From the NCBI GenBank assembly GCA_905178155.1, contig CAJINV010000003.1, positions 10,501,604 through 10,565,603 of the forward strand: a stretch of DNA of 64,000 nt, given 5' to 3'. Source of the DNA: Amoebophrya sp. A120. Its lineage: Eukaryota > Protista > Dinoflagellata. A program made the translations under genes and the position numbers. Under the pieces are notes generated by a model. It was not told the DNA's origin. It saw only the letters and a list, made by a program, of their open reading frames with translations, and did no database searches. This document shows positions 3,517 to 49,795 of this stretch, piece by piece (the stretch's first letter is position 1; every line of letters starts with the position of its first letter).

Positions 3517-4313
3517 GTACGAGGCGAAAAATCCGCCCCAGCCCAATTTTCAAAATTTGGCTTGGCCGGTTGCGGTGCTCGGTTGCAGTGGGTGTCGTAG
3601 TTTTCCAGTTGGGCACAGACTCCAGCCTGGGTGTCTTGGGCGGGCCGTGCTTCACCAAGCTAGGGCACCCACAATGTCAATGGAAAGGCTGACGACCTGC
3701 GCCACAAATAGGTGGCGCGGGAATGCGCGAGAAAAAAATAAAGGCGCTGGGGTTGGCAAGGGAAAATGTATATCTCTTGCTTTGATGCGTTTTGGCATTT
3801 CCGACGCGAAAAAGTTCTCCTTTCTCTGGCATTTTTTGGGCCGCCCATAGCATTTGGCCCAGCCGGTTCGCCGGGTGGACTTCAGGCCTTGGGCAAGAAA
3901 TTATACCTTCCGGACTCCGGTCGTGTTTGGCGTCATTATAATTTCTTGCCCAAGGCGTGCAGTCCAGTCGGTGAAACGGCTTGGGCAAGAAATTATAGTT
4001 AGCCAAATGCGGTTGTCCCACAAGGGCTAACGTTTGGCCTCCAGCTGTGAAGCAGTTCCCGAGAATAGCCGGGAGCTGGGGAGGTGGCGGGGTGCCTGCG
4101 TTTGGTTTTGAACGTGTGCCGGGTCTTTTGGTGCGTTGCTGGGCGGAAAATCCGGCAGCCCGTTGGCAGACGACACGCAATAGCAGGCTCTTTGTGGTTT
4201 GATCAACATCGCCGGACTTAGCAGCGTCAATGGCCGATGACTCGACGCGGCTGAAACAGCTGGCAGAGTCAAGTTTTGAAAATTGGGCTGGGGCGGATTT
4301 TTCCGCTTCGTAC
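3517..4313. mobile_element. TIR element (MITE/introner-like) with ~55-bp TIRs and 3-bp target duplication GAA
   Basis: Left end GTACGAGGCGAAAAATCCGCCCCAGCCCAATTTTCAAAATTTG; reverse complement of the right end GTACGAAGCGGAAAAATCCGCCCCAGCCCAATTTTCAAAACTTG. GAA flanks both sides. The internal motif CTTGGGCAAGAAATTATA occurs three times in alternating orientation. Confidence 0.85.
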
Positions 4314-8332: not shown

Positions 8333-11300
8333 ATGGCACCAAGACGAAGTAAAGAACATGGCTTCGTCGGACAAAAGGATTCCGAGTCAACAAGAAGCTC
8401 TTCAGCCGCTTGCGCCACTGCTATCACTGCGCCAGGCGACACAGTTCTGGTCTACAAGGACGCTGCACGAGTGCCGCTGAGCTTTCTTGCGCAGCGCTTG
8501 GGGACGAGACACGACGATGCCCAAGCCACAGCCTTTGCGCACCTGTCAGAAATTCTTGATGCGTTCTTCACTACAAGAGAGGGACACTGCCCCGCTTTCT
8601 TGCTGGTGTCGCTGCGATTACTGGAAGAAAAAACGCGGACGACCCTGAAAGGCGTGAGGCTCTCGACCACGTCGATCAGTTTTGAACACCCACACGCTGA
8701 CGTAAAACAGTTTCGATGCTGGGTATCCTGTGCAAGAGTATCTTCGCACTTGACGTACAAATTGCTTTTGCTGCAGTACTGCATCATGACAAAAATTAAA
8801 ATTTCCTTTCACTTTATAGTTTTAGTCGAGTCAGCATTACTTTTACTACATATGATCTTTGTCCTGGAAATTTGCGAGTTCTACCAGTCAGTGCGATACT
8901 TTTGCAATGCATACTGGGACCGTCTGAACAAGTTGGGAGATCATGGTAGCGTTAAATAATTACTCATCGAATAATTGTCTTTATCATGTCGCATAGGACT
9001 AGTCGATTCTGATTGTTCAAACCCGTCTTTATAGAGTTCTTGTTAGTAGGCTACGGCTACCTAGGTCTTGACTCAAATCAAGAGATATTAATATCCACTT
9101 CGCCTTCCTCCACTTCATATGTGGATGCGCATGTGGCTGCCAACTCCCATGCCAGCAGTGCAGTTGGGATTGAAAAGTGCTACCAAAAGCAGGAAATTGT
9201 GTCTGCGGCTGAAAAATTCAAAAGCTCACCCTTGCGGCGGCGCGAGGCCGCCGGTATTTCTGCCATTGGAAGCGAGACTGTTTCCCGAAATGTTGCGGAG
9301 TTGCGGCTTCCCCTGTTGAAGCAGGACACTTCGTCATCGCGGGGGGGTGGCTAAGGGTATTGAGGGCCTAAGTGAAAGAGAACAACAGAGATTTCCAGAC
9401 ATTCGCTGCCATAATCGGCTCTGTCGATTGGCTGGCGCCTTTAAGGTGGAATCTAATATAATATATGTAACTCTCTTGCGTTTCTCATTCTTTGCTACCT
9501 TTCATCTCTGGACCCCTGAAGCAAGTCAAAAAGGGCAGCCCCGGACTCCGGGCCGGGCCTTCCCGTCTACGGCCAGGGGGGTCACAGAGTTGGGCAATTG
9601 GGGGAGGGTTCAGAAAAATTTCCGCAGAGGCCCAAACCCGATTGGTACTGCGGAAATTTGTCTGCGGTTCCAGCAGGGGGGGGTCCTGACCGACCCCGCT
9701 CTGGTGGGCGGGGGTGCAGACAAATTTCCGCAGAACAGTCGACTTACCGTGGTCAGCCGGAATTCTCAGCACTAAGAGGTCAGAGCAGCTGGAACAGCCG
9801 AGGTTTGGAGGGCCGGGCCTCCCGGGGCAGGAAAGTAGATGAAATGCGAGAAGCGGACCATGGCCAGCTCCCGCGGACGAGTTGCTTTCCGCGGGTGGGT
9901 CCCCTGCTCAGCCCCACCGCAACCTCCGAGGCCGCCTGGATTTGGACAACCCAAATTGTTTTGCCGTTACGCCCAAAAACAAAATTCTTGAACTTTTCAG
10001 CCGCGGACAAAACTCACGCTGGTAAAGTCGTTCACCTAATGAAAATGATCAAGCTTTAATCTATCTTTCCCTCGTCCACCCTTTGTCAGTCTTTTCAACA
10101 AGAACTGTGGGACATTGAATTAGTGACTAAGTACTTTTGTTCTTCAGGCGGAATTCTGTCGCTTGAGAGCGAGTGCCTGGCGCTGGCCCGTGCATTGGAA
10201 TTTTGCGGTATCAGTCTCGTCGAGGTCAAGGCAGTATTGGATATCGTCGCCGATCTTCTCGGGGAAGAGCAGCTGACAGGTAAGTTATATAGGTGCATCA
10301 TGCTTCCTCTTATGGTTATGAAAGAATGACAGGAGTTCGAGGCCATGAATATCGCACAAAATTGAAATAAAAGTTACGATCACATCGAATCACCAGATCA
10401 ATCTAGTTGTAGCACTTAGTTAGAAGTTCGACTTCTATGAAGAAGAAAAAATAAAATTAGTTTGTGCGGCTCGCGACCAGCACGATGTACAGGTGCTGCA
10501 ACGTTTAGTGAATGGACGCAGCAACACCCAGTGCCACTGATCTTTGGCATAGGCAGACCAATGCAAAGGCACTAGTACTTGCCGAACAATCTGAAGTCAA
10601 TTGATTAGCTGCATGAGCATGATGGAAGATGAAGAACCCTCAGCGTTGACACAAATATTAATGACGATGGGACATTTCAAATATCGTGAAATCGGAGCTA
10701 ATGCTAATATGATGTGTAAATACTTAAGCGCAACATCAAGATCAAGTTCTTCAATTTTAATAATGAGCAAAAAGAAAAAGCCTTATACAGAAAAACAAGA
10801 AATAAAGAAGAATCTGAAGGCGACTAAAAAGATTTGACAAAAGGGTGCTATTTGCTAACGTATAATTTAAAACGGTACTAGAATGGATGACTGAAAGCAA
10901 CAAACTTAAACTGCAGGATCGTCGCTGGCGGATCGGTTGCAACTTCCCGCACGGACAGTAGCAGACTTCGTCAGTAGTAAAGACAGAAGGATGCTGTTTG
11001 CGAAACTGCTTTACGACGGGCTAGTGCGTTGCATCGTCAGCGCGTTGAACGACGAACTGAAGTGCAGTCTTGCGTCGAAGGAGCAGGAATATGCAACCGG
11101 GCATGGCCATGGCGGCCGAAACTCGGCTGTCTATTCGACTAAATGTGTCCACCTCGTACAACTCGCATCGGAGTTCGGTAACGAACGCAAAGTGTCATCC
11201 TCATCGTCGTCCGATTCAATCCAGGGAGCGTCTTCGTGGGAGAGTTTCCAAAGTCTGTGGATGCAGTCGGCGCTCTTGAGCCGTGCGAGGACGAGCAATG

Positions 11301-11681: not shown

Positions 11682-13907
11682 TTGAGTTTTTTTTCCAGCC
11701 CGAGACATATTTGCAGTGCATACGAAGACACTCTCTACAACGCTAGTGCTACGGAGAACGTGGAACTGCAGCTCGGATGTGATGCGTTGGCGAATTTTTT
11801 TGCTAGTTGCGACCCAGAGCGGAGTAGTGTTTTAGTGGATTGCTTGTACCGGCGAGACCGATCCGAAAAAAGCTTCTCTCCTTTCGTGCTCCTGCAAGGC
11901 GGATTAGGCACAGAAAGAAACCTCCCATCCGCATCCAATTTGTCAACGCGCGAAACATGCGTAATCTTCTGCGGTTGTCATGCAAAAAATGAATGTGGAT
12001 GGGTTTTCTATTTTTTCTGTGGATACAGACAACGGTTACAGCATAGAGGCCACGCCTTTGACGTGTCAGGTTCATGGACAGCCTCGTTCTTTCCGCACAC
12101 TCTGGCTGTGCAGACCTTTAGCGGGGAGATGTTGTCCACGGCTTCGGCCGCGGAATTATCGGAGGATTCGCTGCAACTACTGCACAGCATCGCGTTTTCG
12201 CACCTGCGCGTGGAGCGAAATCCTTTTGCGGACATGCTAACGCTTCGAGAGGACCTCGAAAACATCCTGCGAACTTCCATGCGTGTTTACGTTGTGGCCT
12301 CATCGAAGAACAGTCCAGCTACGCCTTCTCAACAGCGCGCTCATGTGTTGGCTGCGGGCAGCACAGCTACAACACGAGGTGGCAGTGGGAGTTGTACTGC
12401 TACTGGCGCCGCAGCGTCGAGCTCGAGGGCGAGCGGCGATGACAACAGGTTGAAGTTCGTTGTGTCGGGAAGAACAGAGAACTTGAAGCATTTGGCGGTT
12501 TCCACCCGGCCAACTGCAGGCTTCCGCGCCCCCGGCACCGGTGGCGGAGCTACGCGAGGAGCAGCAGCCCCAGAGTCATCCTCTTCGCAATCCGGCATCG
12601 CTTGTCGTTTCCGACAAGACGAAGCGGACGAGGGCTTGCGAGATACTAGTGATGAGCTGTCTGCGAGTCAGCATTTTCAGGTTCGGGATGATGATCTCTT
12701 TACGGGGTACGTGTCCTCAACCGGCGCCACGCAGAGCAGTTACGGAGGCAGGAGAATAATGTTGACAGGAACGTCCTCCTCCGCTTCTTCTTCTTTAACG
12801 ATCAGCAAGAAGAATCCGACGAAACAATTTCTGTTCTACGAAGAGGCGGGTGCGGGCGACTCTGTGGCGGGAGGAGGTGGCGCTACAACTGGCTCCTCGA
12901 GTGCTGCGAATAAAGGAAACAACGCTTCTCCTGGGGCTCCTACGACGGGGGGACCAAATAAAGTCACAACGCCACCGAAAAGCGCTGGGGCTACTTCTTC
13001 GGCAGCCGCCACCGCTGCCTCGGCAACGACCTCGACCACCGCGCCTGCTGGTGGTTTTTCGGGGTTTCACAACTTGACGCCGGAGGGTCAGGAAATCGTG
13101 GCTGCGCAAATCAAGAAAATCATGGGTGGCGCCGCGGAGGGGGTGGTGACGACGGGGTCGTCCGCTACTTCATCTTCTGGAACCAAGAAAAACGCCGATG
13201 CGCTGTCCGTCAAGATGGACCGCGTGCTAGTGGACGAGGCAGGGCAGAACAGTCGCGGGCCCAGCCCCTTTATGGAGCTGGTCGGCCTCGGGCCGGAATC
13301 GCGGGAGGAAAGCTATAGAGAGCTGTGCGTGAACAAGAAGGCCGACATATTGAGAGGAAAAACGTCCCCGTCCCAGAGTCAAGATCAAGCTGGGAAATCT
13401 GCTACACAATTCCCACAGCTTCGGCTGTTGCGCGTGACAAGTTTTGTTTCGTAGTGTGGTCCTGTTTCAGCAGCGTCATAGATCCAGCCTATTGTGCTGG
13501 TTGGAGCATTTGAAATTCCAAAACACAGCTAGAAAATAGATACTTCCTAATATGAGGCTCCGCGTGATAACAAGTAGCTATATATAAGCATTTTGATCAT
13601 GTAGATTTGCATGACAACTATTGGGCGGGGGCGTTTTTACATAGGACGCGACATCTTTGACGCGGTAGCCGCCGGCGATGCGCCGGCGGTGCAGCGCAAT
13701 CTGCAAATCTTCTGGCCCTTGTTTGATAAGTATCTCAGTGGCAGTGTACTACACCTCCCCTCGGTTTCCTCTGTCTTTTTGTTTTGCCTCTCAGTTGCTA
13801 AAAATTATACGATGAAATAGAATCCAAGAAATCTTCCGGTGCTTGTACTTGTAGATATTATATATGAATATAATAATGACGATGCTCCCTTGGCGCTTTG
13901 CATCCGC
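11682..13907 (+). CDS. Ser/Gly/Ala/Thr-rich protein followed by ankyrin-like repeats (probably continues to ~15002)
   Basis: 590-codon ORF. Removing introners 13347-13649 and 13730-13858 (each plus one duplicated triplet) gives ...KKADIFDAVAAGDAPAVQRNLQIFWPLFDKYEYNNDDAPLALCIR. A downstream segment NKNNSLAFALHLALQ is also ankyrin-like. Confidence 0.55.
13347..13649 (+). mobile_element. Introner, family A copy 1; non-canonical intron
   Basis: GAC[ATAT..AAAAACGTCCCC ... GGGGCGTTTTTACATAGGACGC]GAC. The internal sequence is homologous to 20409-20736 and 22024-23478. Confidence 0.85.
13730..13858 (+). mobile_element. Short introner-like intron
   Basis: TAA[GTATCT...AGATAT]TAT. Using the nearest AG (13853-13854) gives an immediate TGA, whereas the TSD-guided junction keeps the frame open. 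Confidence 0.55.
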
Positions 13908-15240
13908 CCCAGTCGTGTTTGCGTTGTAACAGGTTGCCTTATAGGAGCATGACTTGAGTTCAGTGCGAAACTGTAATCGATGCAAGGATGGATTGTTTTG
14001 CATTCGGATTTGCTAAAAGTTGTCGCCGTAATGATTACTGAGGATGCGGAAACCGCCCTCATTAACAGAAGGAAATGGAGGGGGGGGGGGGGTTGTGCAC
14101 GCCTATAACAGTGCCTATGTGGAGTTTGTGCAGAACTGGCTGAAAGCCAAGGGACACGTGGCGGACCTCGATATAGCGTTCTCAAGCGTCACATTCTCAG
14201 CTATTGCGTGAATTTGTGATGCGTATGCATATGCAACAAGAACAACAGCCTTGCCTTTGCGCTTCATCTTGCGTTGCAGATGTGGTGCGGATTTGCATAC
14301 TCATGCTATTTATAATTAATGCGCCGAGAGCTTGTCATGCGAAAAAGCTTGATGTTGATCATGATGCGCAGTGAGTACTGCGCATCACGATCATCGTGAT
14401 GTCATCGAAAGTTGTGCTTCCTCGCCCACCCCCCGGGGAGGGGATCCTTGACCTGTGGCGCTGGGAGCGGGTGTCCACTACATGATGACGATGATGATGA
14501 TGATGATGCAGTGAGTGTGATAGTTTGGATAAATTGAAACTCGTCATGTAACAGCTGAAAACGTAAGTAACGCTTGAGACTCCCATACTGCAGGCGTCGC
14601 CTTTGCAGAATCTCGCGAAGCTGTCCCTGGACCGAATCCACCAGATCGTGTCTGATTGCACCTTCGGGAACGCACTTCAGGACGCACAAACAATATGTAC
14701 CTGTCAGGTGGGAAGTTGTCATGAAGATGAAATTACTTACTTTTGAGTACCAGTACGCTACTAGGGCTAGTAACCACGACCACGACGTGCTCGTGGTTGC
14801 GGTCGGCTTACTTAGTACCGTAGCAAATCGCTTCCGTGTTTTTTGGGCGATTCCCCACGTGGCGCAACCATATGCCAAGGTGGCAGAGCTGAAACAGAAA
14901 GCCAAGGAGGTGCGGTACCGCGGGCCGACCAACCGTCCGGGTGAGGCTGCTCAAAGCGGCGGGAAATACGATGACGCTGGGCTGGCTGCCAGAGGTTCAT
15001 GATATAATTTGTTGATGATGTTGGATGCCTCCGTTTGGTGGTCTTGTTGGGATAAGAATAATAATGCGCTCAAAACGTAATCTCAATCTCTATGTTTATA
15101 TAGCGCAAGCGTTTGCAAAGAACTACTTTTAGTACATCCTCGTCCAACTCCAAGGACGCCAACACTGCGACTTCGAATACTTATGCGTAGATACATGAGA
15201 CTGATCAAAGAAAGAAAAATGAATCGCAACAGCACGCGGC

Positions 15241-16425: not shown

Positions 16426-19400
16426 GAAGGGCTCCTGATCTGCTGGTTAGGAGTTCTTCTTCGACGTCGGAAAACATTAACATATCCCCAAAGTCATACG
16501 TGCCGAGCCCGTTCTCGTGTCGATACAGATCTATCACGAGCAAATACAGTAAGAAAAACAGAGCAATGCTGGACGATGCTTCAATGTCTAGCTTTTGCGT
16601 TATATTCTATTTTGTTATATTATATTCTATTTATTTCTAAGGAATTAATATTAAATTAAACTGAATGCTGAAGATCATATATGTACCTAAATAGTTTAGC
16701 ATCATCATCGGCATAATTATGAATAAAACTCTGAGAAGATCCGAGTTAGTGACGCGGCCTCGCGACTAGCTCGGGTGTGTAGGCTGGGCGGAGTACCAAC
16801 AAGTAAGCCAGCAACTGTTGTTGTATATGTATTGTTACCTAGTAAGTTTACATATGTTTTGATAGACAGTCGCAGAATGGAAGCAACACCGCCGAAGATA
16901 TTCACTCTGGTCTGTTACAGCATTTTTCCTTAGTACCGCTGCGATGCAACAACAACTCAACGAAACCACTGCATAGCAACTTTCTATATTGGTACTGCTA
17001 CTGAGACTGAATTATTTGCAACAATCCCACCCCTGGAGGGAAGGGAAGTCGTGATAAGGGCCTGGCGCCCAGATGTGCTACTAGAGGTAGACGCGGCAAG
17101 TCTCGCAAACTACACGGCAAAACGCCGCTGCTCCTGGTGAGTGATGAAGGGCGGCGCCCGCAATCCAGCGCGTGACCCCTCGCTCCTGGTGCTGGGTGTT
17201 CTCTCCTTGAGGAAGAGCCCAGCTCTGGAAGCTGGTGCGCCTTGTAGTATCATGCTCCTGGCGAGCACTAGGCGCGGCGCCTCGTGGTCTTTGGTGAGTG
17301 AGACGGCGGAGGGCTGTCCGCGTGCTTAACCTGAACAACACAGCGCCAAACCCTGCCCGGCCATTCCGAGGCGGGCCCCCCCTCTAGCGTGTTGCCGCGT
17401 CGTGTGCAAAGATGCCCGGCATGGCGTGCCCCCCCCGGCCTTGTGCCGACCGTATTAGTGGCGCGCACCGCCGTAAGCCCTAACGCCCTACGTAGCGCAC
17501 AGGACGCAGCTGGCGGCACTTGCCGAAGATCGGTGGAATCGGTGGGGCCTGCGCTATTCTGGAAAGCTTGGGCGGGCACCCTCAGCCCCCTGGTGGGGCC
17601 GCGAGACCGTTCGCGGGAGGCGGCGCAAGAGGCGGCGGGGGCTCCGCCTGCGTGAGCCGCCACCGTCACAGCTTGCGCCCTACATTCTGCCCGCCCGGCA
17701 ATAGCCGGATGTCAGTGGAGCCGCTCTGAAAGCGCGCGCCGCTACGCACGTAGCGTCATGATTCCGCGTCGGCGCGCCCTGTCCCTGTGTGCACCTTTGA
17801 ATAGTGCTGCTAACTATAAAAAGGAGCCAGTGCTCGAAGCAGGTCCGCACAAAGCGCCCGCTTCCCTTCATGCGCGCTGCTCTCCTTCTGCTTCCACGGC
17901 TTGAGGTCGTGCGTCGCGTTGAAGGGTCTTCCCCCGTCTGGCTCCCACAACCGCGTTGTCGGGCGGATCATTGCGAGTTGAGTATAGCATGGTCAAAGAG
18001 CGAGCGCCGCTCCCGCTTCTGTTGGAAACAAGAAGCGGATCAAATCCAATTGCAATTATTTATATTTGCAACAAAAAAGAAAAAGAAATAGGAAGAGAAG
18101 AAAACGACTATAACTGTATGAAACCATCAGACGAGACCGGAGCAGGGTCTCGATTTCCAGCGCGCGACTATAATTAAGCTCTGCGAAGAACAACGAGTCG
18201 ATACATTCCCATTCGTGCCCTCATCTCTTTGTACCTGCAAGAACAAAACATCGCCTTCTACTATTTGTATTTGTTAATAATTCTTGTTTTCTTTTGTTTC
18301 CAGATGCAGATGTGCCGTCGTGTTCAGTTCGTTCGCTGTTGTGTTTTGTCGTTGAACGGGAGGGCGAGAAGTGGCGCTGCTTGTTGTAGCGGCCGTGGGA
18401 TTTCAATCCGCGGTATCGTAGCCAGAACAAGACAACCGCAGGGAGGTGTTCAGTTACACTTTGGGGCTACTAATTCTATGGGTTCTTTTTTATGTGAGCG
18501 TCAGCATGACCATGAGCTCGATAGCACTAGTAGGAGTCACACAGATAACAGGAAAGATCGTGCTGACTACATCACTTCGGTTCTTGTGTGCAACGTAAGT
18601 AATCATGCGAATGCCCGACTTTCATCATGTATTAGTATTTGTATGCCAACACCAGCACCATGGCTTCTGTTCAATGTTCCACAAACTACAGGACCTCTAC
18701 TCTTGTTTTATTCGCATACTTCCCTATCCCTTCGCAGTAAGGTTGGTCTCAAATAATCTTTTTTTTTCCGTGGTAGATGAACATGTTGTCCTTGGAGTTG
18801 GAAGTCCAACGAAGCTGCCCTCGCCGGATTGAATATAGTAGATGAAGGCAAGGCAATGCAATGGAAATAAGTAGTTTGAAAGCTGTTGTCTAAATAGAAG
18901 TATTAAAGCCGACACGCAGAAACGTAGGCAGGCTCTACAACATGATACATACCTAGGCTTTCGCTTGCTGCGGCTCTCTTCTGTGGTTGGTGTTGTTTTT
19001 GAAACCTGCTTACACGAGCGACGTACATCGAAAGCTGCAACAAGTTCCAAAGAGCTTTGAAATAAGAAATACGCAAAGAAGTAGATATGTTGTTGGGCCT
19101 ACTTCTCTCACAATTATAAAGATCGATGTGACCGCTACGTATCAACACGCACATCCCTAGTTGATCTATATATTGCTTCTGCTACCCCTACCGCCTACTT
19201 CTGCTGATCTTTTAAAAAAGAAAGGAGACCCGAGCCGCCTCCTTGTCGTTTTTGTTCCGAAGCAAAGTATTTGAAGCCCGCGTCTCGATGCGCCCTAGGT
19301 TTCTACTCTTGCGCGCTTTTATTTATATGCAGCATGATCCGGTACTCAGACTCACGCATTACGAATTAATATACTGATAGTGCACGCACGGCTGGCAGCT

Positions 19401-19682
19401 GCGCGCTTTATCTTCAAAATTTCAATTTTACAGTTCCGATGGGGGTCTTACCCGGAAAATGCTTCCTGCGTCGCAGGCTATCTGCGAGCTTAGGCCTCGG
19501 CCCTCCGGCAGCTAACCGGACCAGCACACAAATTTGGCACAGCATAGTACTCAAGCAGAAAAAGCAACTATGACTTATCATTATGGAAAAGCAACATGAG
19601 AATTACTCAAGATTTAAATGTCTTCCCTTAGAATTACAAGTGCTTCTTTGTCTCGTCAAGTATTTTGATTTACATTGTTATA

Positions 19683-22600
19683 ATGTGGAGCTTTGGTGCG
19701 GCCAGTACGTTTTTCGGGAACACTGGGAATGGTGGGGGGGCGGGAGGCGGTCCACCTCCTCCTTCTCAAAGTACGAACAACAACAACGCGAATGCAAATT
19801 CTACCGCCGGCGCGGCAAGCGGAAACGTACCAAATTCGGATGGTGTCTCTGGTGGCTTTTTCTCCTCGGGCTTCAATATGACCTTCGGCTCACCCTTCCA
19901 CGGCGGAGGCGGAATGAGTTTTGGCCCAAGCATACTATTAGCTAAAATCCCGCCTCCCTATACTCGAAGATGCCGAAGCTCGTGATGCCCACTTGCGGGC
20001 ACAAGGAAGTCAACGCTTACGCCCTTGAGTTGTTGAATAGGGTTGAGCGGAACGCGAGCAGTCTACTTCGCAATCCGCTGACATGCGCTTCCGCCCAAGG
20101 TAAGCTGACGACGAGACACCTATCTCTCATGCGCCATACCTACAGCACGACTGTTACACACCCAAAGTTGTAGAAGATGTTTAAGAGTGAGGGGCCTGCG
20201 GTGCACTGCGACGAGACAAAGCTGCTATGTGTCCGCACATGGGCTTGGCAAATTTTTCATTTCAGTATGGAGAGGAAGGATTAGTTTTTCATTCTGATAA
20301 ATTTCACCGGACCCGGGCGGCAGCGGTGTTTCGCCTCCTGGGCCCTTTCCTTTTCCAGGATTTCCTCCCGGCTTCAATATGAATGTAGGCGGACCTCCTC
20401 CGCAGACGCTATCCTGTACAGAAACGTTTCCACCCCATAGTCAAGATGGCAAATCTGCTAGACAAATCAGCAAGCTTTGGCTGTTCTTGCGCGTCGAGCT
20501 TTGGCTGTTTCGCATAACAAGTTTGGCCTCGTTGTAGTGTGATCCTGTTGATGATGATGAGCTAGGTAAGCAGCTTCATCACAGACGGACCTAGCACATC
20601 GGGCTGGTCGGAGCCTGACAAATTCCGAAGCACGACAGTGAAATGCTTCTCATGGGGCTCCGCATGAGAAACATTTTCAGCATCATGCAGATTCATTTAT
20701 ATGAGAGTGGGGCGCGGACGTTTTTACACAGGATAGACGCACCATTTTCAGCAACATCATCAGCAACACCAGCAAGCGCAGGCTAAGGCGGCCCGACAGC
20801 ACCATAGCATGCGCACTTCTAACAACGGTGACGACAATAGGTCCTCCGGGGGATCCACTTTCACTCAAACATGGTCATGGAGCAATGGAAATGGAGGAAA
20901 TTACGGAAATAACGGACCACCACCCGCTCCCGCACCGTCGTCTGCAGCTCCTCCAGGTATTACATCTGGATGAAAATTGAACAACTTAAACTTTTCTTCC
21001 TCTGATCGTTTTCTGATTTTTAATCTTTATGCGATATTCAATTACGACCCAAGTGCAAGTGCATAAAGCTTGAAGTTGTTACTTTCGATTATTTCTGCGT
21101 CAAGATATCAACCCCGACCAAAAAACTCCCCACCACCGAAGGGTCTTCTTCGACACCTTCGCACTCTGCGCGGCAGGAGCGACACCGCGGTAATGCGTAC
21201 CAGCATCAGCAAGAAGCTACGAGGACCACTAGCAGATCCAACGCTAGCTCCTCAGCTTCGTCAAACAGCTCCGCTGCGCGGGGGCGCAGCGGAGCAGAGC
21301 CACGCGCACAAGGTGGTCCCGGTCGCCCGCCACCGAACCGCCAACCCCCGCCTCCCGCCCGGGGGTCCGCCTCAGGAGTCGGAGCGACTTCCGTAAGCCC
21401 GTCGAAGGTGGAACGGCTACCGCCGCCCCGGATCACCGTTCCGGTGGCGATGCGCTCGGAAAGTTGTCCCATCTGTCTGTGTGACTTTCACGAGCAGCCC
21501 CCAGAGAAGGCGGAACCAGGGTCGAGCAATAGTGGGTTGCCGGCAACGCTCGCGGTTCGATTGCCGTGCCTGCACTATAATAGGGAAGTGAGTTATGATC
21601 CAAGGGCTTCTGCTAGCCTTCACCTTCAGAAAAGTCGCAGTGCCGCGCATCCGTATGATGCGGATTTGCTGGGCTCCTCCGTCCGAAAAGCAACAGAAGC
21701 ACGCGACGCGATGAGTGGGATCTTTTAGAGTGATTCTGTTTTTTTTGGTAGGCGTAGTTTGTTTTGCATGATAACTTCCCAGGCAGATTCGCAGGATAGA
21801 AAGCGAAAGACAACTGCGGTTTTTTTTAATACGTAGCCCGCGGGCCGCACTGCTCATCTCTAAGATCGCTCATTTCTCCCCCATAGGGACATGTTTCATC
21901 CCGAGTGTGCGGAGCAGTACCTAGAGGAGCACCAGACCTGTCCAGTCTGCAAACTCGACTTGCACCCGACACACGTGCACCGGAAGCTACGTCTCCGGGT
22001 TGAGGACGTGGGTTCGATGCAAGTTATCATGAGGAAAAACGTCCCTAAATCTGCTTAGAGAATATAGACAAGTCAGCTGCGAGTTTTGGCTGTTGCGCAT
22101 GACAGGTTAGGCGTCCTATTGTATATAGTGAGGTCACCGAACGGCTCTAGCCAGGGAGTTTTTCTGCAACCAGTGCAAGACCGAAAAGGTCAGCACTCAC
22201 GAAACCCGACCGAGTTACGATCTTACTACGTGCAACGAGGGCGGAGCAACGTCGGGGCTACGTCGTGCTTGTGCGAATGCGGGCGCTATAGTCCATGTAG
22301 TTCCTTTCTTCCTTCGTGTTACTGGGGTAACACTACAAAACTTTAGGGAAAGACTCAGAATGAGTTCGCGCCACACCATGCGGATTCATCTCCGCATGTG
22401 GAGGCTTGTAAAGCTCTGACGATGGTAGTACCATCGGGAAATGGAACATTTGCAGTGCTGAATGATTGATCATCTTCGTGGATCTTCAGTGTGTTTCACA
22501 CACGACATCAGCGCCGTCGTCATCTTCGATTCGTGCCGTTAGGTCGTGACTTTAATGCTGGATATCTGCGATCCACAACCAGACAGCAAAACGACCGGCA

Positions 22601-23893
22601 GTTTTCTGTCGGCCGGATGTGTTTTGGAACATAAAAAGTTTTTATTTATCAATCGGGCGGGGCCTTGCTCACAACTAAGCCAGAGCGGAGTCTATCGATT
22701 GCCGATTGATGGAACGACGCAAGGGAGCCGGCAAAAGTAGCGCCCTTCTGAGGCGCCCAGCGCACCCATTTTCGTCGATTTGGGGCGCCCAAAAAGGGGC
22801 GCCGGAAAAATGTAGAAAAAAGGAAAACCGCAAAGCCTCATGGTATAGGCGTCATCTTTGCCTAGTTTTGGCCCTCGTGAAAGCCGCGAACAAAACCAGG
22901 CATAGCAGAGGGGGACGAGGGGCAAAAAGCTGCGCTTTTTAAAACAAAAAAAAACAAAGGCCGGCAAAAGCTGAAAGCCAGTCCCCATGCTATGGGCCCG
23001 ATTTAGGGGGCTCATAGGGCCGCCCCTGGAGGAGGCCCAGGGGGGGCATAGCGTGCGGGGAAGCTCTTTCTCTTTGAAAGCAGGAGGGGCGCGACTGTCG
23101 GTCGTGTTTTTAGTGGTGCGGCGTGCCATGCGGAGTAATGTTATGCGCGACGCTATGATGGACACAAAAAGTAAAAGAGCCATCTTTTTTTTACACTCAA
23201 GGAAGGGCGCCGGTCCGAGAGGACGGTCGCGCCCAGTCAAAAAAACCCAGCGTGACCTCACTACCCCCGCCTCGGCGGCCATAATTGGTGGTCCTGTGTA
23301 GGTAGTTCAGCAGCCTGGCAGATCTTGCGCATGTTGATGCTGGATGGATCATCACAAATTCCGAAACACGACTAGAGAGCGCTCCTTCTCTACTTGGGGC
23401 TCCGCATGAGAAGTATTTTCAGCGCGCAGACTTGCATTACAGCGAGCTATGGGGAGGGGACGTTTTTACATCGGATACAGGTCAAGGAGCTGCGCTACCT
23501 CTACGACTACATCGGGATCAAGCCGGACAAGAGTTTGGTGGAAAAGCCCGACATCGTTGCCCACATTCTTCGCTCAGGCTGTGTCACAGTCATCACACCG
23601 CCGCGTGTAGGTACGGATTTTGCGATTTTTGCTGCGACGCGGTCAACGTCAGTCTCGATGGTTGTAACGGGTGATCTCCACTGACTTGTCATTTCATCAA
23701 AATAAAAATATGTAATAATTGCTCTCTTTCTTCAATGCTTCGCCGAATGACCTTGACAGATCAACTACCCGTGAAAGAGTTGAAAGTGATGATGCGCACG
23801 CTCGGCATTCCCGCCTCTGGGTGCATCACAAAGGAGGATCTCGTTACTGCAATCCGGAGGCACCCCTGGGTCGTTTTTGACGCAAATGACTAG
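19683..23893 (+). CDS. RING-H2 E3 ubiquitin ligase with Gly/Pro-rich N-terminus and two C-terminal SAP/ARMET-C-like modules
   Basis: Predicted exons 19683-19931, 20301-20408, 20740-20955, 21111-21574, 21890-22022, 23481-23610 and 23760-23893. RING: CPICLCDF...LPCLHMFHPECAEQYLEEHQTCPVCK. Repeats MQVKELRYLYDYIGIKPDKSLVEKPDIV and LPVKELKVMMRTLGIPASGCITKEDLV. Confidence 0.85.
19935..20300 (+). mobile_element. Introner-like non-canonical intron
   Basis: ATA[CTAT...ATAA]ATT. Subterminal IR AATCCCGCCTCCCTATACT / AGTATGGAGAGGAAGGATT. Removal joins SFGPS to ISPDPGGSG in frame. Confidence 0.7.
20409..20736 (+). mobile_element. Introner, family A copy 2; no GT donor
   Basis: ACG[CTATCCTGTACAGAAACGT ... 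ACGTTTTTACACAGGATAG]ACG, with a perfect 3-nt duplication. Removal joins PPPQT to HHFQQHHQQ. Confidence 0.9.
20957..21108 (+). mobile_element. Introner-like non-canonical intron
   Basis: CAG[GTAT...ATAT]CAA. IR AACAACTTAAACTTT / AAAGCTTGAAGTTGTT. The TSD-guided junction, unlike the nearest GT-AG, reaches the RING reading frame. Confidence 0.7.
21575..21886 (+). mobile_element. Introner splitting the RING domain; non-canonical intron
   Basis: GCA[CTATAATAGGGAAGTGAG ... CTCATTTCTCCCCCATAG]GGA. The junction must restore C-L-H-M-F-H. Confidence 0.8.
22024..23478 (+). mobile_element. Introner, family A copy 3, with a ~1.15-kb nested insertion; spliceable as GT-AG (22023-23480)
   Basis: AAG[TTATCATGAGGAAAAACGTCCC ... 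GGGGACGTTTTTACATCGGATAC]AGG. Family homology stops at ~22130 and resumes at ~23288. Confidence 0.85.
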
Positions 23894-33000: not shown

Positions 33001-33159
33001 TTGGAGGCGATGTTGCAGTATCACAGCGCATGCCTTCGCTACTGCTACGACGTCGGCTTTTCGAGCATCGCAGCGAACTTCGTTTGCTCTTTGTTGGCGT
33101 TTCTGCTGCGGCTCTCCGCGAGGGGACGATCAAGATTGAGTATATCCCATGAACAAAAT

Positions 33160-34261
33160 CCCCCTACCCCGGTTTTTCATCGTTTTTCAAACTATTGAGC
33201 AGGTCTGAAAAAAAAAAAAACGCGACCCGGTCACATGACCCGAGCGTGTGGACCTGAGCGACAGACTCTGTGCACTAGCTAGGGAAAAGGTGGACGATGA
33301 GAAGTGACCTTGTGCACACCAGCCACTTTATCCGAACCATGTGAGATAGCTAGCAACTTTTAGTTTATCAGACATGAGCCATCCGAAATTTGCATATACC
33401 AAAATAGTGCTCATGTCCGAAATCCGTGGATCTCGGATCTCGAGATCAAGTCGAGACCCGAGATCCGCGGACTCTGCGGATCCGAAAACTATTGAGCAGG
33501 TCGAAAAAAGTAAAAACCCGAGCTGCCCAATAGTTTTACTTACAAATGCAAAAACATGACCTCCCTAAACGTGGACCATACCGCGCAAGTTCATACTGCG
33601 CCCCCGAACAAACTTGGGGACTCTGCTGCCATCATGCAGCAGATAGCTTGGTCGAGCCGGTTGCTGAGCATACCACGCATCTTCGTACTGAACCCCCGAC
33701 GGAGAACCGAAATCAACCCAAACCGAAAACCATAGCGATCATTTGTCGTTTTTGTGCTGCGAAAAATGCAGGAAAATCGTCGGGGTAGCTGCCCGAACAT
33801 GCAGCGGAGTGCGATTTTTTTCAAATCAGGCCCATTGCGCCAAAGTGCGCCGCTTTTGTTGATTTTTGCAAATTGTGGGCCGGCTCGTGATTTTTCATTC
33901 CACTTCTAGGGCTGGCCCACCAGAATACTCAGAGCCGGGGCTTCAGAAGTTTGCTGAGCCTTTGGACCCAGATAGTGCAATATTACTAATGGCAGTACTT
34001 TCATACACATGCGCGCTGCGCGAAATTCGGATGGCTCGCGCTTGATAGTTTCCAACTTTCTAGCTATCTCACATGTTTCAAATTAATTAGCTCTTAGTGC
34101 GCAAAGGGTGCTGCTTCATGGTCCACCTCTTCCGCAGCTAGTGCACAGACACAGAGTCTGATGCTCGGGAACCGACGTCGGCATGTGTGAGCAGGTGCCG
34201 AAAAAGAAAAAATCAAACCTGCTCAATAGTTGAAAAAGCGACGAAGTTCCGGGGTAGGGGG
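33160..34261. mobile_element. Non-autonomous long-TIR (foldback/MITE-like) element
   Basis: ~230-bp imperfect TIRs: CCCCCTACCCCGG...TTTTTCAACTATTGAGCAGGT...CAGACTCTGTG...CATGTGAGATAGCTAG...GAGCCATCCGAA, mirrored at 34020-34261. No clear TSD. Confidence 0.85.
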
Positions 34262-34781
34262 AGAAATTTCGTCGAATAGAGTACAGCCCTGCTTTCATTC
34301 ATGTGATTTTATAACAGGTGAGATGCAAGCCTTTACGCCTGTTGTTGCGGTGCACACGCAGAGCGGAAAGCGCAGCAAAGCCAAATGCATCCTGACCACG
34401 CGCATTTGCATTTCTGCACTTGCTTTATGCTCCGACCGATTTTGTACGCATTCTGCCTCTACTAGAGGCACGAGGAAAGATGCGCGAAGAAGACATTGAA
34501 AAAAGAGAAAGAGCTACTAGTTGATCATGCGCATTCTGACAGCGACCGCGCACCCCAAAAGCACTGAAATTCTTTTAATTACAGTATTACAGTGCGTGCA
34601 TCGTCATCATTTTTATTTTTTGCTGCATTAATCAGGTGACGAAAAAACCTAGCCTAAGCCAACGACGTTACCACTAGGGTACCAGGGCAGGCTATTCCTG
34701 CCGCGCGTCGGAGGAGGGAGTTGCGCCGAGCCCCGCTCGAACTAATCACCATCATCATCATCAGGTGACTTCAGTGGAGAT

Positions 34782-41756: not shown

Positions 41757-43833
41757 TGCGCAGCACCAGGCGCGTTTGTCATGCTTGCACTGTGACGAGC
41801 TTTGTTTCCGTCACCTTTTGCTTTTTCAGATGGAGAGTCAGTAATAGCTTCGCATGAAATTTAAATTATTGAAGCTTGACGTCGCTCCGGGAGCCTCCAC
41901 AGGAAAGTCTACTTCATACATATATATTGATATGCATCTAATTTATAGATTTTGCATCGCAGCACGCATGACAAACTTCAAACGGCTCGCATTGCAGTAC
42001 TAGCATCTGCATCGATTCAAGATGTGAAAGCCCAGGATAACTTGCCATGATGCTAGCAGCAAACTGCGTGGCTTGTACCGTTTAGTGGCAGTAGCTCTTG
42101 CACTTGCTAGTAGTTTTCTAGATAAAATTAGAATTTGAAAAAGCGACGCTCTCGTCGGATGTATCGCAGCTTTCAAGAGTGCAACATCTGACGAGGCCAT
42201 ATATTGGATCACTCGCTTTTGCACGGAGTGCCACGGGCGTGGGACGGCGCAGGATTGGTCCCGCAGATGAAGCATGCGGGCGAATTTTCCAGGAACCGAA
42301 AGCGCGTGAGAGAGCACGACTTCTCATCTGATTCCGGCCGCGAACCCGAGACCTAGCAATTCCAAGTGCCGACCGTGGCCCGAGGGCCTTGCGCTCCGTG
42401 GACTTTTTTCAGTAGGCGCCCACTCATCGCAGCTTTGTATGTTGTCATCGTGCTGTTCGGGCTGCTGCGGAAAGCGCGTAGGGAGAGATGACTGTGGTGC
42501 CGGCACTTTTCATTTTCTTCTCATCCGTTCCTGGACAGCAACAGCACGGATCGATCCGTGACTCTCCAGACTTGTGTGCTACTCGTGGCCCAGCGTGCGG
42601 TGCGTGTCGAAGCAAATAGAGATAGACGCTATGATCTGCGTGTCTGTTCGCACAGTAGCCCAACCATTGATCCTTTTTTCGCAAGCAGAGCGATCAACAT
42701 CAAGACATGGACAGAAAAGTAAGCAGTAACCACCCTGCGGGGGTCGCCGCGGCCGAGCCGGAAGGCGTAACGCAAGTGCCTGTCCTTGTTGCTTCATATC
42801 CAAGCGCCTGCAGTGCTGCGTCGAAACATGAGCGGAAAAAATGGAGGCGCGTCGATGGGACAAGAACGAGAAGTAGGTCTCCTTTAACTTCTGTTCTCTA
42901 CTTCAGTAATTGAAATGGGTTGGGTATAATCAAATTGTTGCGATGAAATTTGTTATCTGGCTCGGGTATGGAAGTGAATCAAGAAAAAGAGGAGCCGCGC
43001 GAGGCAGGTACTTCCAAGCTCGGAGCTGCGCTGTAGCGCGGCAGAAACAGTGTTGACCTGTAATACAACTGCTAGGGCTTGATGTTGATAATGATAATGA
43101 TAATAATTACTCCTGCTATCGCTTAGTGGGGAGGTTAGGCTTCATCTAGTAGCAGTAGCTTCTAGCCCTGTTGCCGCCGATCCAGAGCCATAGAAAGATA
43201 GCGACCTGCCACCCACCCACCTGGGTGCCTGGATATGATATTGGCATCAACTAAAATAAATGGTGCGGCGAGCACTGATTGATTCCGAGTGGATGGGTTC
43301 CCTCCGTATGACCACCACTCACGGAAAGACTGCGCTTCATCATCGTCGTGCTGCGCTTTTCATTGGCCAATGCTGTTCCAGAGCAAGCTGCTGGCGCTGG
43401 TTCTTTTTCCTTGACCCTACTGCTATTCTTTTTCTTTTTCTTATTTATCGCTGTCCTCTGACGGGGCGTTTTTTTTCTTCACCCCGGAACATTAGTTCGG
43501 ATTGTTTCTTCACAGTGACAGCTGGACGAATGTTCTTCTTCGGATATTTCTTTCGACTAGTAAAGTAATTGCGCTGGTTCTGTGTCTGCTACTCTCCGGA
43601 GAGATGAAATTGGTTGAGCTGCTCAAAAGTGCTTGGACCTAGATTTTCGTCGATGATCGCCGTCGACGCATAATGCGTTGGTGTCGTCATTTTCGTCGTA
43701 AAATTTTCCATTGCCAACTTTTGAGTCCGGGGCATGCGAGTGCACCTGAGCCAAGTCCTTTGGTTAGGTTTTCATCTTCTAGCTTCCTAGATGGAGCGGA
43801 TTGAGATCATCCGAAACACTCGCGATGTGTATT

Positions 43834-44469
43834 AGAACGGGGTCACAAAATGTCCGATTAAGTCCTCGGGGGACCTGCGACCCACCCAGCCGGGTGGGCC
43901 TTAGGTCCCCTGTCCCAATAATTAAGTTATCTATGACTCCGCCACAGCTCGCGTCCGCCCATATTGTTTTCTCGCCGTTTGTAGTGGGTGTAAATCTGTA
44001 TTAGAGTCTTGCACTATTGTACTTGTGCCTCCGTTTGTCGCTATTTATCCCAGAAAAGAGCTTATTTGGTGGGTGTAAATCTGTGATGCAGAAAATGCAA
44101 AACTGTTTCACAGGAAACTGCAGAAACACTTTTGCATTTTCCGCATCACAGGTCCCTTTTGCGTAAAAACAGCTTTGCATTTTCTGCATTATAGACTTAA
44201 CCCACAACAAAGCTTTTTTCTTGGATAAATGCAGTGCACAAATCTTTTTTCTTGGATAAGTGCAGTGCACAAATACAATAATACATAAGCTACTGCGTCA
44301 CAGATTGACACCCACAAAAAAGAACGGCGAGAAAACTGGAACGGGCGGACGCGAGCTGTGGCGGATTCGCAACTTAATTCTATATTGGGACAGGGGACCT
44401 AAGGCCCACCCGGCTGGGTGGGTCGCAGGTCCCCCGAGGACTTAGTCGGACATTTTGTGACCCCGTTCT
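43834..44469. mobile_element. MITE with ~170-bp TIRs and 4-bp TSD TATT
   Basis: TATT[AGAACGGGGTCACAAAATGTCCGA...TCGGACATTTTGTGACCCCGTTCT]TATT. The outer ~85 bp are nearly perfectly inverted. Confidence 0.92.
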
Positions 44470-44721
44470 TATTTTTGATTCCTCTGATTTGATCGATGCA
44501 CCAGTCAGGACGAGGACGAAAACGAAATAAAGTACATCTACATGATGTTGATCCATGAGATAAATTTAGATGAAGTGAAAAACAAGTAGAAGAAAAATTG
44601 TAGGCGTCGAAGATGTTTGTTCCGCTACTAGTGTTACTGCTTTATTAGTAACTAATCGTTTGCTTGTATTTGGTTTCTCTTTTATGTCCGCAGCAAGCGA
44701 GAAAAGACGGAGATCAACAAC

Positions 44722-47700
44722 ATGGCTAAAAAGTCGAATCTGTTTTCTTTGCTACACTTTGGCAGCAAGAACAGTGGTCACCGAGACGCGCAGAGACGTG
44801 AGCATCTTCAAAACGTATCACCTCCTAGTGATGTTGAGCAACAACATGTCGAAGTTGATGCGCACGACGTCGATACCGATGAACAGTCTTCGAGTACTCC
44901 CGAGCCCGCACAACTACGGGTTGCCGTTTTGAACAGGACGCCCAGCACCCCTCCGGGGTCTCCGCCACAGCTCTTGGAGGCGGGTGAGGAGCAGGACGTG
45001 ATGCTAGTACCGGAAAAATGCGATATTGATGTAGTACGGCCAGGTAGTAGTTGTAGGAAAACCACGGCTACTGACAAGAAGGGAGGTGTAAATTCAAAAT
45101 CTGATCAAGTCGGTTCTTCCAGTCCGCTGGGAACCGATCACGTCGCCCGGTGTGGTACAATGAAGCAAGGACAAGCACTAGGCCCAGGAGAGGGACGAGG
45201 GTTGGAATTGCAGGCAGCGAACTTCGCGAACCACGAAGGTGGCGCGTGCAACACAAAACACGAAAATGACCATGGTGCTGGGACGCTTGCAGGTGGGAAT
45301 GACCCGGGCATCACGTCCTCGAGGAGCCAGCCGCGGGAGAAAAACTCGTCCGGTGCAAAGATGACATCTGCGCCCCGAAGGCCTAAGTCCTTCGCCCAGG
45401 TCTTTCAGGAGCATGCCCTCACCACGAATTGGAATAATTCAACGACCTCCAGCAGCTCGAGCGCCTGTTATTTTGACTCCGCGTTGCATATGGGAGCGTC
45501 AATTGAATTGCTTCGAAAATCATGAAAAAAATTGTTTTAGGTAGTGACTCATCTAGCTAGTAACGACTTGCTTATACACCTCATTGATTGCTAATGTTGT
45601 CGTGACGCAATATCCAAACAAAAGCCGCATTATTGCATTAGCTAGAAAGGGAGCCTGCCGCCCTGTCGCCTCACGGATCTGCCCAGATCCGTGAAGCGAC
45701 CAGGCATCGGGCTCCCTTTCTAGCTAGCAGGAGAACTAAGCTCATTCATTAATACAGTACAGGTTAATAATGATGCATAGTTATTTTGGGCCCATTTTAA
45801 ACTAACTAGCTAGCTACATGGAAGTTATATATGAAGAAAAAATGACCACTATTTCGGAAGCAATTCAATCAATTGACGCCTCCATATTGCATCAAGTGCA
45901 GCTACTCACGACGATGGATAGCAAAAACGAGGAGCAGAATCTTTTAGCATCCGGCAGTAGCAGCTGTGCCATGGAGCAGGGCGAAGGCGGTGCCGGTCCA
46001 CGCAGACGCACAGATCGTGGTTGCGTGAGCGAGGAGCAGGCTTCGATAGAAGAAAAAACTGAAACAAGCACGAGTAAGGGCACCGCTGTGGACCAGCACG
46101 CGCGACGCTTCGCCGTCGTTCACCATCAAGTATCAGACGATGTTGAAGGCCGACGAGAGCGAACGAAGATACCGTTGGAAAACGGTCCCAGCACTGGACA
46201 TCAACGAACACGACCACAGCAAGGAGAAACGCATGCGCCCCGGGACATCTCGATCTGCAGTCCATCAGACGACCCGACCGGTGCGGTTGTGGCCGCGCGA
46301 CGCCGGCGACGCAGCGGCAGTTCCTGCAGCAAGCAGAGTCGTGATCAACCCGAGGGTCGTGGCGGCTGCGGTGGTCATGGAGGTCAGCGCGAGGAGACCA
46401 CTCCAACTCCGCCAGTAAAAGATTATAAATTCCTCGCCGAGGAGAGTCGTACAGGAGCATCTAATTCCAAATCTTCATCGAACATCGCAGCCGATGGCGC
46501 GGAAAGATCGCAGCAAGTCAGCGAGACCTGTGTGAGGCTTGAGCTAGACCAGTGCCGTCAGAAATGTCGGTCCATGCAAGAAGCTCTGCTGACGGCTATC
46601 CAGGCGGATGAGAACAGGGACGCGCACTTTGCGGCCCTGAGCACGGAGTGGGACCGCAGAAAGCGCGACATCGGTAATATTCAATGAAGAAAGTGCACAT
46701 CTTCGATGTACTTCTACTTGGTGAATGATGATGCCTGATATTTTTGCTTGTGCGATGTCGATGATTGAAAGCAAGAATGGCGTCGGTGGAACAAAGTCAA
46801 AGAACCTGCAGCCACTTACAATTTAAATCCTTACCGTAAGGATTTAAATTGTAAGTAGCTGCAGGTAGTACTGGAACTACAGCGAGCTCTGGCCCTCTTT
46901 CGCTCATCTGTCAGATCATGCATTGCATGTATGACTACGAGATTGATGTAGAATATCAGATATGCATGTATGACACAGATTCAATATCTGTGTGCCTCAT
47001 ACTCGAGCTTGTTCATTGTGTTACAAGACCAAGATGAAATAAGAATGCGTCACAATAAATACTCAGATGCCTGGCTGGCAGCGCAGGGTATTGAAGTGTT
47101 TGTGCCTGAGGCTGAGCCAATCTCTCCGGAGACCGCGCGACGACGAGAAGCAATCGCATCAAGTTCAAACTTTCGCGAAGACGTGGAGAAAATTGAAATG
47201 GGAAGCAGCAAGAGAGCGGCCCTTGGTAAGATGTCTCAAAGAGGGAAGCACGGAGGGTTACTCAACACGTTTGACGAGATAGTAGGTTTGGCCGCGCGGT
47301 CGATATCTCGGGGCAACGCGATCACGGACGAACTAGGCCCTTCCAGTTCCAGTTCGACGAGTGCAACAAGAGATCATGGACTTCCTGGCTGCGGTACCAC
47401 CACCGTTGCCGCGAGTTACGCAGTGGGATCTTGCTCAAGAACGTCTAGTACCGCGCGATCAACCACATCGAAGCTGTTGGAGTTCAAATGCCCCGTTTTT
47501 CAGACGAAACCGATCCCAGTAGGCATTCCGGAGACTCCGAAATTCCCCACGCGACCAATGCCGGTACGCACGCCGGGGTTCACTCTTGTCCTACCGACTA
47601 TGGGAGCGTCAGCTTGGAAACCGTCAAACTGGAAATGCTGATGTTCTTTTATTTAAGTATCGTTGATGCAAGTTTTTTTTTTCGTTACAAATCGGAGGCA

Positions 47701-48815: not shown

Positions 48816-49630
48816 TAATCAGCAGGATGAAGCATTTCCAAGAACAACAAGATCGCTGAGCAGCTAGGGGACGACCTAATTGTGATTCTCATTCGTATTT
48901 TGATGTTTTAGCGTACTTCATCAGATTTACAACCTCGCCTGGGGCTAAACGTGCTGAGGCTGATCCGAATTATGGAGGAGTTGCCATCGTTTTCGTCCCC
49001 CTATCGCTTGCGGTTGTTTTCGTTTATTTTTACAATGCACCAATCAAACTAGTAGCATGCCGTAGTGTAGCCGTGCCCGGGACCGAAAACTAGTTTTGAC
49101 CCCCAAACTAAAACCACCGTCCAGTTGTATATATAATAGCAACGTATGCCTCGCCTGTAGAAATGTGAAACAAAATTCAACTACTCCGCTAGATCGAAAG
49201 CCAAAAAATACAACCAGGACAGGAGTTCGACAGTGCGGCTTTAAACCGTGTTTGCGCCTGCAGCTACAGCTGTGAGCAGTTCTTGCGGTTGGAGTGGTTT
49301 TTGCGCCACTTTTCTACGTACACGTTGCGGCTTTCGTTCTTCGTGCCAAATTGTGGATAGGTCTCCACAAGGACAGGCAAGGAGAGTCGTTTGCTTTTCG
49401 ACGCGATGCAGGCACTGAGCGCAGAGATCGTTTCGCTTAGGTCTATTTATTTGCTTCCCACCATCCAGCTGCTCAAGACTTTGAGAACCTGGGATGTTGT
49501 TGCTCCTTCCAGCGCCGAGCGCGCTTTTTTCAGCCAGCTTTGATGACCTTGCCTGCCATTTTTGTTGCTTAAGCAATAAGCGCAAAAGCTTTTTGCTGTT
49601 GCTTTTGCTTTTGCTTTTGCTTTAGTTTAG

Positions 49631-49795
49631 TTTTTGCTTTTTGCTTTTTGCTTTTTGCTTTTTGCTTTTTGCTTTTTGCTTTTTGCTTTTTGCTTTTTGC
49701 TTTTTGCTTTTTGCTTTTTGCTTTTTGCTTTTTGCTTTTTGCTTTTTGCTTTTTGCTTTTTGCTTTTTGCTTTTTGCTTTTTGCTTTTTGCTTTT
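49631..49795. repeat. (GCTTTTT)n heptamer tandem repeat, ~23 copies
   Basis: Directly visible, preceded by GCTTTT hexamer variants. Confidence 0.97.

Follow-up and report, generated by a model that had tools for sequence, protein, structure and literature searches.

By what rule does Amoebophrya sp. A120 remove the more than 60% of its introns that lack GT-AG ends, apparently without U1? This question was posed in PMC7789003, according to whose text non-canonical introns form the majority class. At the locus described here, within a 64-kb stretch of the A120 genome (the window), a predicted RING-H2 motif is split by an insertion, and a duplication that has diverged within a strictly conserved zinc ligand acts as a natural reporter of where the cut falls. 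The intron concerned, intron 4, is no one-off, since it falls into the majority class (PMC7789003) and intron 1 of the same gene is also non-GT-AG; taken alone, it is ordinary for A120. Position, and not GT-AG, likely determines where it is cut, one base ahead of TAT and four bases past ATA. It is probable, in our view, that a 310-base element is removed together with five flanking bases in the register N-TA(T/C)…ATA-N4, and we propose the spliceosome as the agent.

The public model of the gene (Table 1), P0001 (472 aa) of Amoebophrya sp. A120, is 100% identical to the window; it was the single protein returned when part of exon 4 was used as a protein query, and a Pfam search with exon 4 alone gave no match. 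The motif is cut after C-L-H (21567-21575) and resumes at M-F-H (21891), and the insertion reads into a stop codon. Once joined at the main junction, the product has the arrangement C-x2-C … C-x-H-x2-H-x2-C … C-x2-C, with all eight ligands at the usual spacing of the Pfam zf-RING_2 RING-H2 (C3H2C3) domain and nothing odd about it. The zf-RING_2 model (PF13639, cut-off 27.3) gives 27.4 bits for P0001 and 33.9 bits for P0006, the homologue from Amoebophrya AT5.2. Ligase activity is putative. Elsewhere in the gene, GT-AG is impossible in any register of intron 1 (19932-20303) and absent from all registers of intron 2, 20404-20734 included, whereas intron 5 can alternatively be read as GT-AG at 22023-23480.

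Table 1. Coordinates of the RING-H2 gene, its introns and the parts of the intron 4 insertion (positions in the window)
Feature	Positions	Strand	Evidence or remark
Whole gene, predicted RING-H2 protein, 7 coding exons	19683..23893	+	466 aa with main junction
Intron 1, AT..TT, A-TAC ... ATA-AATT, non-slidable	19932..20303	+	joint in X1 (359.7) and X2 (27.5), slide 0 in both
Intron 2, TAT...ATA element, perfect GACGC flanks, slidable by 6	20409..20739	+	joint in X1 (541) and X2 (27.5)
Intron 3, canonical GT-AG, begins GTAT	20957..21141	+	joints and protein mapping
Exon 4: RING ligands C-P-I-C and C-L-H, preceded by a low-complexity region	21142..21574	+
Upstream 5-nt flank TGCAC, inferred TSD copy, contains His codon CAC	21571..21575	+
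Intron 4, 315 nt, non-canonical, CT..GA in inferred register	21575..21889	+	slidable 21574-21888 to 21576-21890
TAT...ATA element, 310 nt, likely non-autonomous TIR transposon relic	21576..21885	.	sequence; element + 5 = intron length
5′ arm, predicted terminal stem	21576..21593	+	TAT pairs with ATA; 21583-21593 with 21868-21878 (MFE and centroid fold)
Alternative excision of 310 nt, A-TAG donor shifted 5 nt downstream	21580..21889	+	X2 joint 21578->21889
297-nt excision of public model, donor T-TAT, inserts YNREVS in RING	21593..21889	+	annotation only
3′ arm, predicted terminal stem	21868..21885	+	reverse complement TAT-N7-AAA
AG acceptor of exon skip from GT donor at 20957; unused in main junction	21885..21886	+	X1 joint
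Downstream 5-nt flank GGGAC, inferred diverged TSD copy	21886..21890	+
Exon 5: M-F-H-P-E-C ... C-P-V-C, second RING-H2 half	21890..22023	+
Intron 5, 1458 nt, TAT...ATA ends, flanks CAAGT/CAGGT	22024..23481	+	X1/X2 loose ends behind 22024 match 23483 onward
Intron 6, canonical GT-AG, begins GTAC	23611..23759	+	P0001 mapping only

The insertion is a candidate introner element; we leave its membership at that grade because its repeats are worn and its copies were looked for in the 64-kb window only, where a self-BLAST found no second one. The flanks had been called target-site duplications in an earlier reading made from the sequence alone. Five-base copies can indeed be placed on both sides, but they are degenerate and not exact, TGCAC and GGGAC being alike at three of five positions with AC exact. 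Amoebophrya introner elements are recognised by an inverted repeat of 8-20 nt joining the ends and a direct border repeat of 3-5 nt. Here the predicted terminal stem is interrupted, with 3 bp followed by 11 bp that include G-U pairs. The A120 inverted-repeat motif TAT-N7-AAA reported in PMC7789003 is exact on the 3′ arm (TAT-GGGGGAG-AAA) and has two of its three final A on the 5′ arm (TAT-AATAGGG-AAG). The end duplex of intron 4 is predicted at -18.9 kcal/mol, a value reached by 3.5% of 3000 random pairs, and the whole intron folds no better than its shuffles (z 0.12). Ungapped scans for terminal inverted repeats (14 of 20 positions) were not used as counts, since most of their 13 and 17 candidates had no matching flanks and the element itself escaped them. 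A reading of CACTATA at 21573 as a CACTA or Transib end, families which we take to have such ends, was rejected: the opposite end is CATAGGG, and the neighbouring elements define TAT…ATA ends.

Other repeats lie in the window. Three related copies of one element family (13345-13650, 20410-20735 and 22025-23477) are 65-83% alike over 27-189 nt, and many loose ends of the RNA-like contigs match this family; the last of them seems to make up the 1458-nt intron 5, with some 1.1 kb of other sequence in its interior. Further TAT…ATA elements at 8724-8913 (flanks CTGGG/CTGGG), 14172-14587 (CTCGA/CTGCA), 45489-45886 (TTGCA/TTGCA) and 56910-57338 (TCTGG/CGTAG) are likely candidate introns. Excisions are predicted at 8723-8917 and 14171-14591 and for the copy at 13.3 kb. 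Large palindromic MITE-like elements occupy 43831-44472, 33159-34262 and 3526-4303, with arms of 47-130 nt that are 74-91% complementary. A dispersed repeat family is represented by four copies (120-220 nt) at 50686-53683 and by one in inverted orientation at about 1880-2040, and 49590-49804 holds an array of about 200 nt with a 7-base T-rich unit.

The sequence-only reading had stated that the zinc ligand can be restored only by a non-canonical splice, and recomputation reproduced its arithmetic exactly. The available GC-AG junction, 21572-21886, yields C-L-D-M-F-H and loses the first His, while the junctions 21574-21888 (AC..GG), 21575-21889 (CT..GA) and 21576-21890 (TA..AC) all yield C-L-H-M-F-H. 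With donors at 21480-21759 and acceptors up to 21934 there are 104 GT/GC-AG options in frame, and none of them keeps C-x-H-x-F-H; eleven of them keep both histidines, with at least 14 residues added between them. Against a profile of 119 homologous RINGs, which was built from C-x-H-x-x-H rows and is therefore biased to His, the scores are 53.2 bits for the His form, 48.4 for the Asp form, best of the canonical options, and 41.7 for the public model. The product seen in the contigs described below differs from that of GC-AG and is given by none of the 104 options, so that intron 4 does not behave as a U2-type GT/GC-AG intron. Ends AC..GG, CT..GA or TA..AC do not place it in the U12 type either, and minor-spliceosome snRNAs are reported absent from A120. 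A strong-looking GT donor at 21588 (GTGAGT) was discarded: its frame does not match that of the AG at 21886, and no joint uses it.

Homologues speak for the His form. A comparison with related strains had been suggested as a check, and P0006 agrees: it reads RLPCLHMFHPEC at the motif, and over the aligned region AIRLPCLHMFHPECA as against AVRLPCLHMFHPECA for the His product. This protein passes the RING site without an insert and thus constitutes a protein-level empty site in AT5.2, where 99.98% of introns are reported as canonical. C-x-H-x-F-H is kept in all seven aligned homologues, chosen from 151, and C333, H335, F343, H344, C358 and C361 are invariant in the eight rows of the alignment. 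Among the 151, found with a profile that itself contained His, 126 have C-x-H-x-hydrophobic-H and the other 25 give no match to this pattern; a different residue at the position was seen in none.

The public model reads C-L-H-Y-N-R-E-V-S-M-F-H, which corresponds to a third junction (21593-21889 or 21594-21890). Since the A120 annotation pipeline worked from transcript alignments and retained the longest ORF (PMC7789003), we suppose that the YNREVS form is likely a real minor isoform and the wrong main model, and that the public gene model is likely wrong in the RING.

Of nine listed runs, four were examined over 19400-22400. Two of raw reads, X7 and X8, have 1 and 0 reads there and provide no test of the junction; X1 and X2 are contig sets that we only guess to be RNA and that may share their source with the public annotation. 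Introns 1, 2 and 3 are missing from both sets; a single X2 contig of 1245 nt lacks all three, the GT-AG intron 3 included, and is therefore mRNA-like. At intron 4, an X2 joint, 21573->21889, skips 315 nt with AC..GG ends, is slidable by 2 and gives the His product at depth 15.7; no GT-AG occurs among its three registers, and it is carried by one contig of one run with a short side of 28 letters. Also in X2, one contig stops at 21575 and the next starts at 21889, as the His junction requires. Two other X2 paths exist, a joint 21578->21889 that skips 310 nt and leads to a frameshift and an early stop (depth 8.7), and a contig that retains the intron (6.66); the His joint is the deepest of the three, contig depth being a poor proxy for share. 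X1, about 20 times deeper than X2, has no His joint among the joints listed at intron 4, but retention (154.2) and a skip of exon 4 (208.3) and nothing else. The skip joint, 20954->21885, is GT..AG with the cut shifted by +2, causes a frameshift and has bin depths (323.6 and 418.7) that exactly fit a contig of 26+30 nt. Like the His joint and the 310-nt joint, it is flagged 'between: not known'. The X1 contig of exon 5 has a depth of 550.2 against 362.5 summed over the retention and skip paths, a shortfall that would fit junction paths lost by the assembler.

In X1 the frameshifted skip is deeper than the path through exon 4, and it is absent from the X2 joints listed; stage-dependent or error-prone splicing could account for this difference. 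Splicing at intron 4 looks sloppy, with a 5-base donor shift, retention and exon skipping besides the main junction, yet the His junction is very probably the working form. The observation of the sequence-only reading is confirmed and its interpretation supported: protein conservation had been taken to argue for a non-canonical excision, the RNA-like X2 contig carries the predicted product and the homologues agree with it.

Where precisely are the cuts? We define r as the count of downstream flank bases inside the intron; flank copies that differ reveal which bases are kept in the mRNA. Nine introns were mapped in two genes, seven with TAT/TAC…ATA ends and the other two plain GT-AG. Intron length equals the element plus five bases in all seven TAT/TAC…ATA introns, two of which have perfect five-base flanks. 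Intron 1, with flanks AAGCA/AATTT and zero slide in both X1 and X2, allows only r = 4; introns 4 and 5 and the intron at 61400 allow r = 3-5, the intron at 59668 r = 1-5, and two introns any r. Register 4 is therefore allowed in seven of seven, a count in which intron 5 is equally readable as GT-AG and three introns come from annotation only. For the four partly informative introns, the chance probability of fitting r = 4 is roughly 1 in 10 (3/6 x 3/6 x 3/6 x 5/6). What pins the exact value is the single non-slidable intron, whose 5′ end is TAC and not TAT, together with the two minor junctions of intron 4, one of which is known from annotation only. These allow r {3,4} and {4,5}, both begin one base before TA, and at r = 4 so do all three donors of intron 4, C-TAT, A-TAG and T-TAT. 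The three junctions intersect at r = 4, which leaves one possible acceptor, 21889|21890, and makes the main intron 21575-21889 with ends CT..GA. The earlier proposal that excision keeps the upstream copy of the duplication thus probably holds for only four bases, the fifth coming from the downstream copy.

This rule had been set down before the P0003 gene was examined, and three introns of that gene fit it. The gene (698 aa, 59177-62734) has three TAT…ATA introns, and P0003 is an A120 protein 100% identical to the window; a Pfam search at E 0.01 gave no match, and its start resembles, as we take it, P2X receptors. At 61400-61603, a TAT…ATA element with flanks GGCAC/GGTAC, the P0003 model has the Ala of the upstream flank and not the Val of the available in-frame GC-AG, a second case of the same choice against GC-AG. 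The nine commonest non-canonical sites in Table S4 of PMC7789003 (GT-AC, CT-AG, AT-AG, GT-CG, GT-AA, CT-AC, AT-AT, AT-AC and TT-AG), which sum to about 20% only, all begin N-T and have mixed 3′ ends. Locally, a fixed register seems to us rather probable. The CT-AC and AT-AC classes may reflect aligner preferences. We are somewhat inclined to extend the register to all 'signal-free' introns of A120, which number tens of thousands: they would follow one code, N-TAY…ATA-N4, in which the register equals the 5-base duplication, introns are born clean, and the 3′ end is cut at the AG or at +4 according to the donor partner.

A mechanism can be proposed on this basis. A TAT…ATA transposon would have inserted into the RING-H2 motif, duplicating 5 bases of the target, and excision at +1/-4 would rebuild the target from four bases of the left copy and one base of the right. 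Since such a register removes the element and one duplication's worth of bases, a new insertion could be excised without protein change in any target sequence, and exact restoration of the target would free the element from any need for a host GT or AG. The flank bases that have become intronic would drift afterwards, as from TGCAC to GGGAC. The cutting may be done by a U2/U5/U6 spliceosome without U1, the donor resembling GTA except that its first base is free (N-T-A-Y), with the splice sites brought together by the paired element ends. The terminal ATA would be the reference point for locating the acceptor, its first A, at position -7, being a candidate branch point, and loose donor choice would let frameshifted and longer products leak.

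The same junction could also be cut by a non-spliceosomal nuclease guided by the stem and sealed by a ligase, as suspected for the nonconventional introns of Euglena. The pairing of TAT with ATA and the fixed unpaired spacers do parallel the Euglena arrangement N3CDG…CHG-N5-6|R (PMC12501133). End duplexes are strong in five of the seven introns (reached by 0.7-3.5% of random pairs), and the AG three bases upstream of the acceptor is used by the distant GT donor and ignored by the near donors, which hints that acceptors are chosen here in two ways. However, the duplex is weak at the 297-nt junction (-7.8) and in intron 1, whose value of -6.2 is one that 77% of random pairs reach, so that a strong stem is not required. 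We therefore consider a nuclease and ligase unlikely, if the most serious of the alternatives, and modestly prefer the spliceosome, because 83 of its 89 protein subunits and U2, U4, U5 and U6 are found in A120, with no U1 detected (PMC7789003), and because the donors are GTA-like with a free first base, as the canonical introns begin GTAT and GTAC.

Less probable still is a non-canonical junction in no fixed register, the cuts falling anywhere in the 5-base duplication and only the exonic flank bases being conserved. The legends of Fig. 3 and S23 in PMC7789003 describe sites as variable, 1-5 nt from the repeats, and most introns here slide over at least three positions; but slidable alignment by itself would make sites look variable, the non-slidable intron 1 is identical in two runs, the three junctions of intron 4 meet in one acceptor, and all nine top sites of Table S4 begin N-T. 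We return to the fixed register as the preferred reading.

That intron 4 is spliced as GC-AG at 21572-21886, with Asp for His or with a G-to-C editing that restores His, is very improbable. Both dinucleotides are present and in frame, the Asp form still scores well in the profile, the AG at 21885-21886 is usable, as the exon skip shows, and editing near 2-4% of boundaries is compatible with PMC7789003. Yet GC-AG accounts for just 1% of A120 introns, the X2 contig breaks at 21575 and 21889 match the His junction, and editing explains neither intron 1 nor the two shifted donors. The sequence reading CTG GAC ATG, which the earlier reading had named as the sign of GC-AG splicing with a variant RING, is not among the 11 listed joints, from which, being contigs, absence cannot be proved. 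It is equally hard to believe that the joints are artefacts of template switching by reverse transcriptase, for which a hairpin with microhomology is a known setting and which may well explain the minor 310-nt joint, or that they come from DNA without the insertion, since retention hits a stop before the second RING half, intron 1 is removed in both runs with zero microhomology, and introns 1 and 2 are missing from the 1245-nt contig along with the GT-AG intron 3.

Amongst known systems, the introner elements of A120 (PMC7789003) are the closest. They share with intron 4 the non-GT-AG ends and TAT-N7-AAA on the 3′ arm and, in putative form, the TAT terminal inverted repeat, 5-nt direct repeats and a hairpin, whereas the repeats of intron 4 are degenerate and it is single in the window. 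Repeat-flanked non-canonical introns of A120 also appear in PMC12130899, PMC12005148 and PMC11453091. The intron class is thus already known, and what is new here is the probable fixed register shared by these introns. In the published text searched such a register was not found, and the figures of PMC7789003 may show part of it; its text describes the border as 'unknown' and the sites, with respect to the hairpin, as 'variable', while our data favour a single register. Nor does that text describe an intron that combines three donors with retention and skipping. If the register holds, it would account for the flooding of coding sequence by a transposon family at low cost, predict the branch point and allow gene models to be corrected.

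Introners derived from TIR transposons in other eukaryotes (PMC12130899) are also non-autonomous TIR elements with a target duplication that leave the protein unchanged, and in Micromonas and Aureococcus the TIR element and duplication are likewise excised (PMC7789003). These other TIR introners keep canonical splice motifs, whereas intron 4 bypasses an in-frame GC-AG. The introns of Fritillaria borealis, as described in PMC7789003, are linked to transposons and escape GT-AG too, but their ends are mostly AG-A(N), while the 3′ dinucleotide is free in the class of intron 4. In the nonconventional introns of Euglena (PMC12501133), paired trinucleotides also stand at fixed distances from both cuts. 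The codes themselves differ: that of Euglena, an unrelated lineage, is N3-CDG…CHG-N5-6|R and was tested by knock-in, that proposed for A120 is N1-TAY…ATA-N4, and positions +4 to +6 of intron 4 read ATA, TAA or AAT where Euglena has CDG, with CHG 5-6 nt before the acceptor. There, too, junction repeats make most introns slidable, and it was the non-slidable ones that exposed the code; the same approach suits the fixed register proposed here, on existing RNA-seq.
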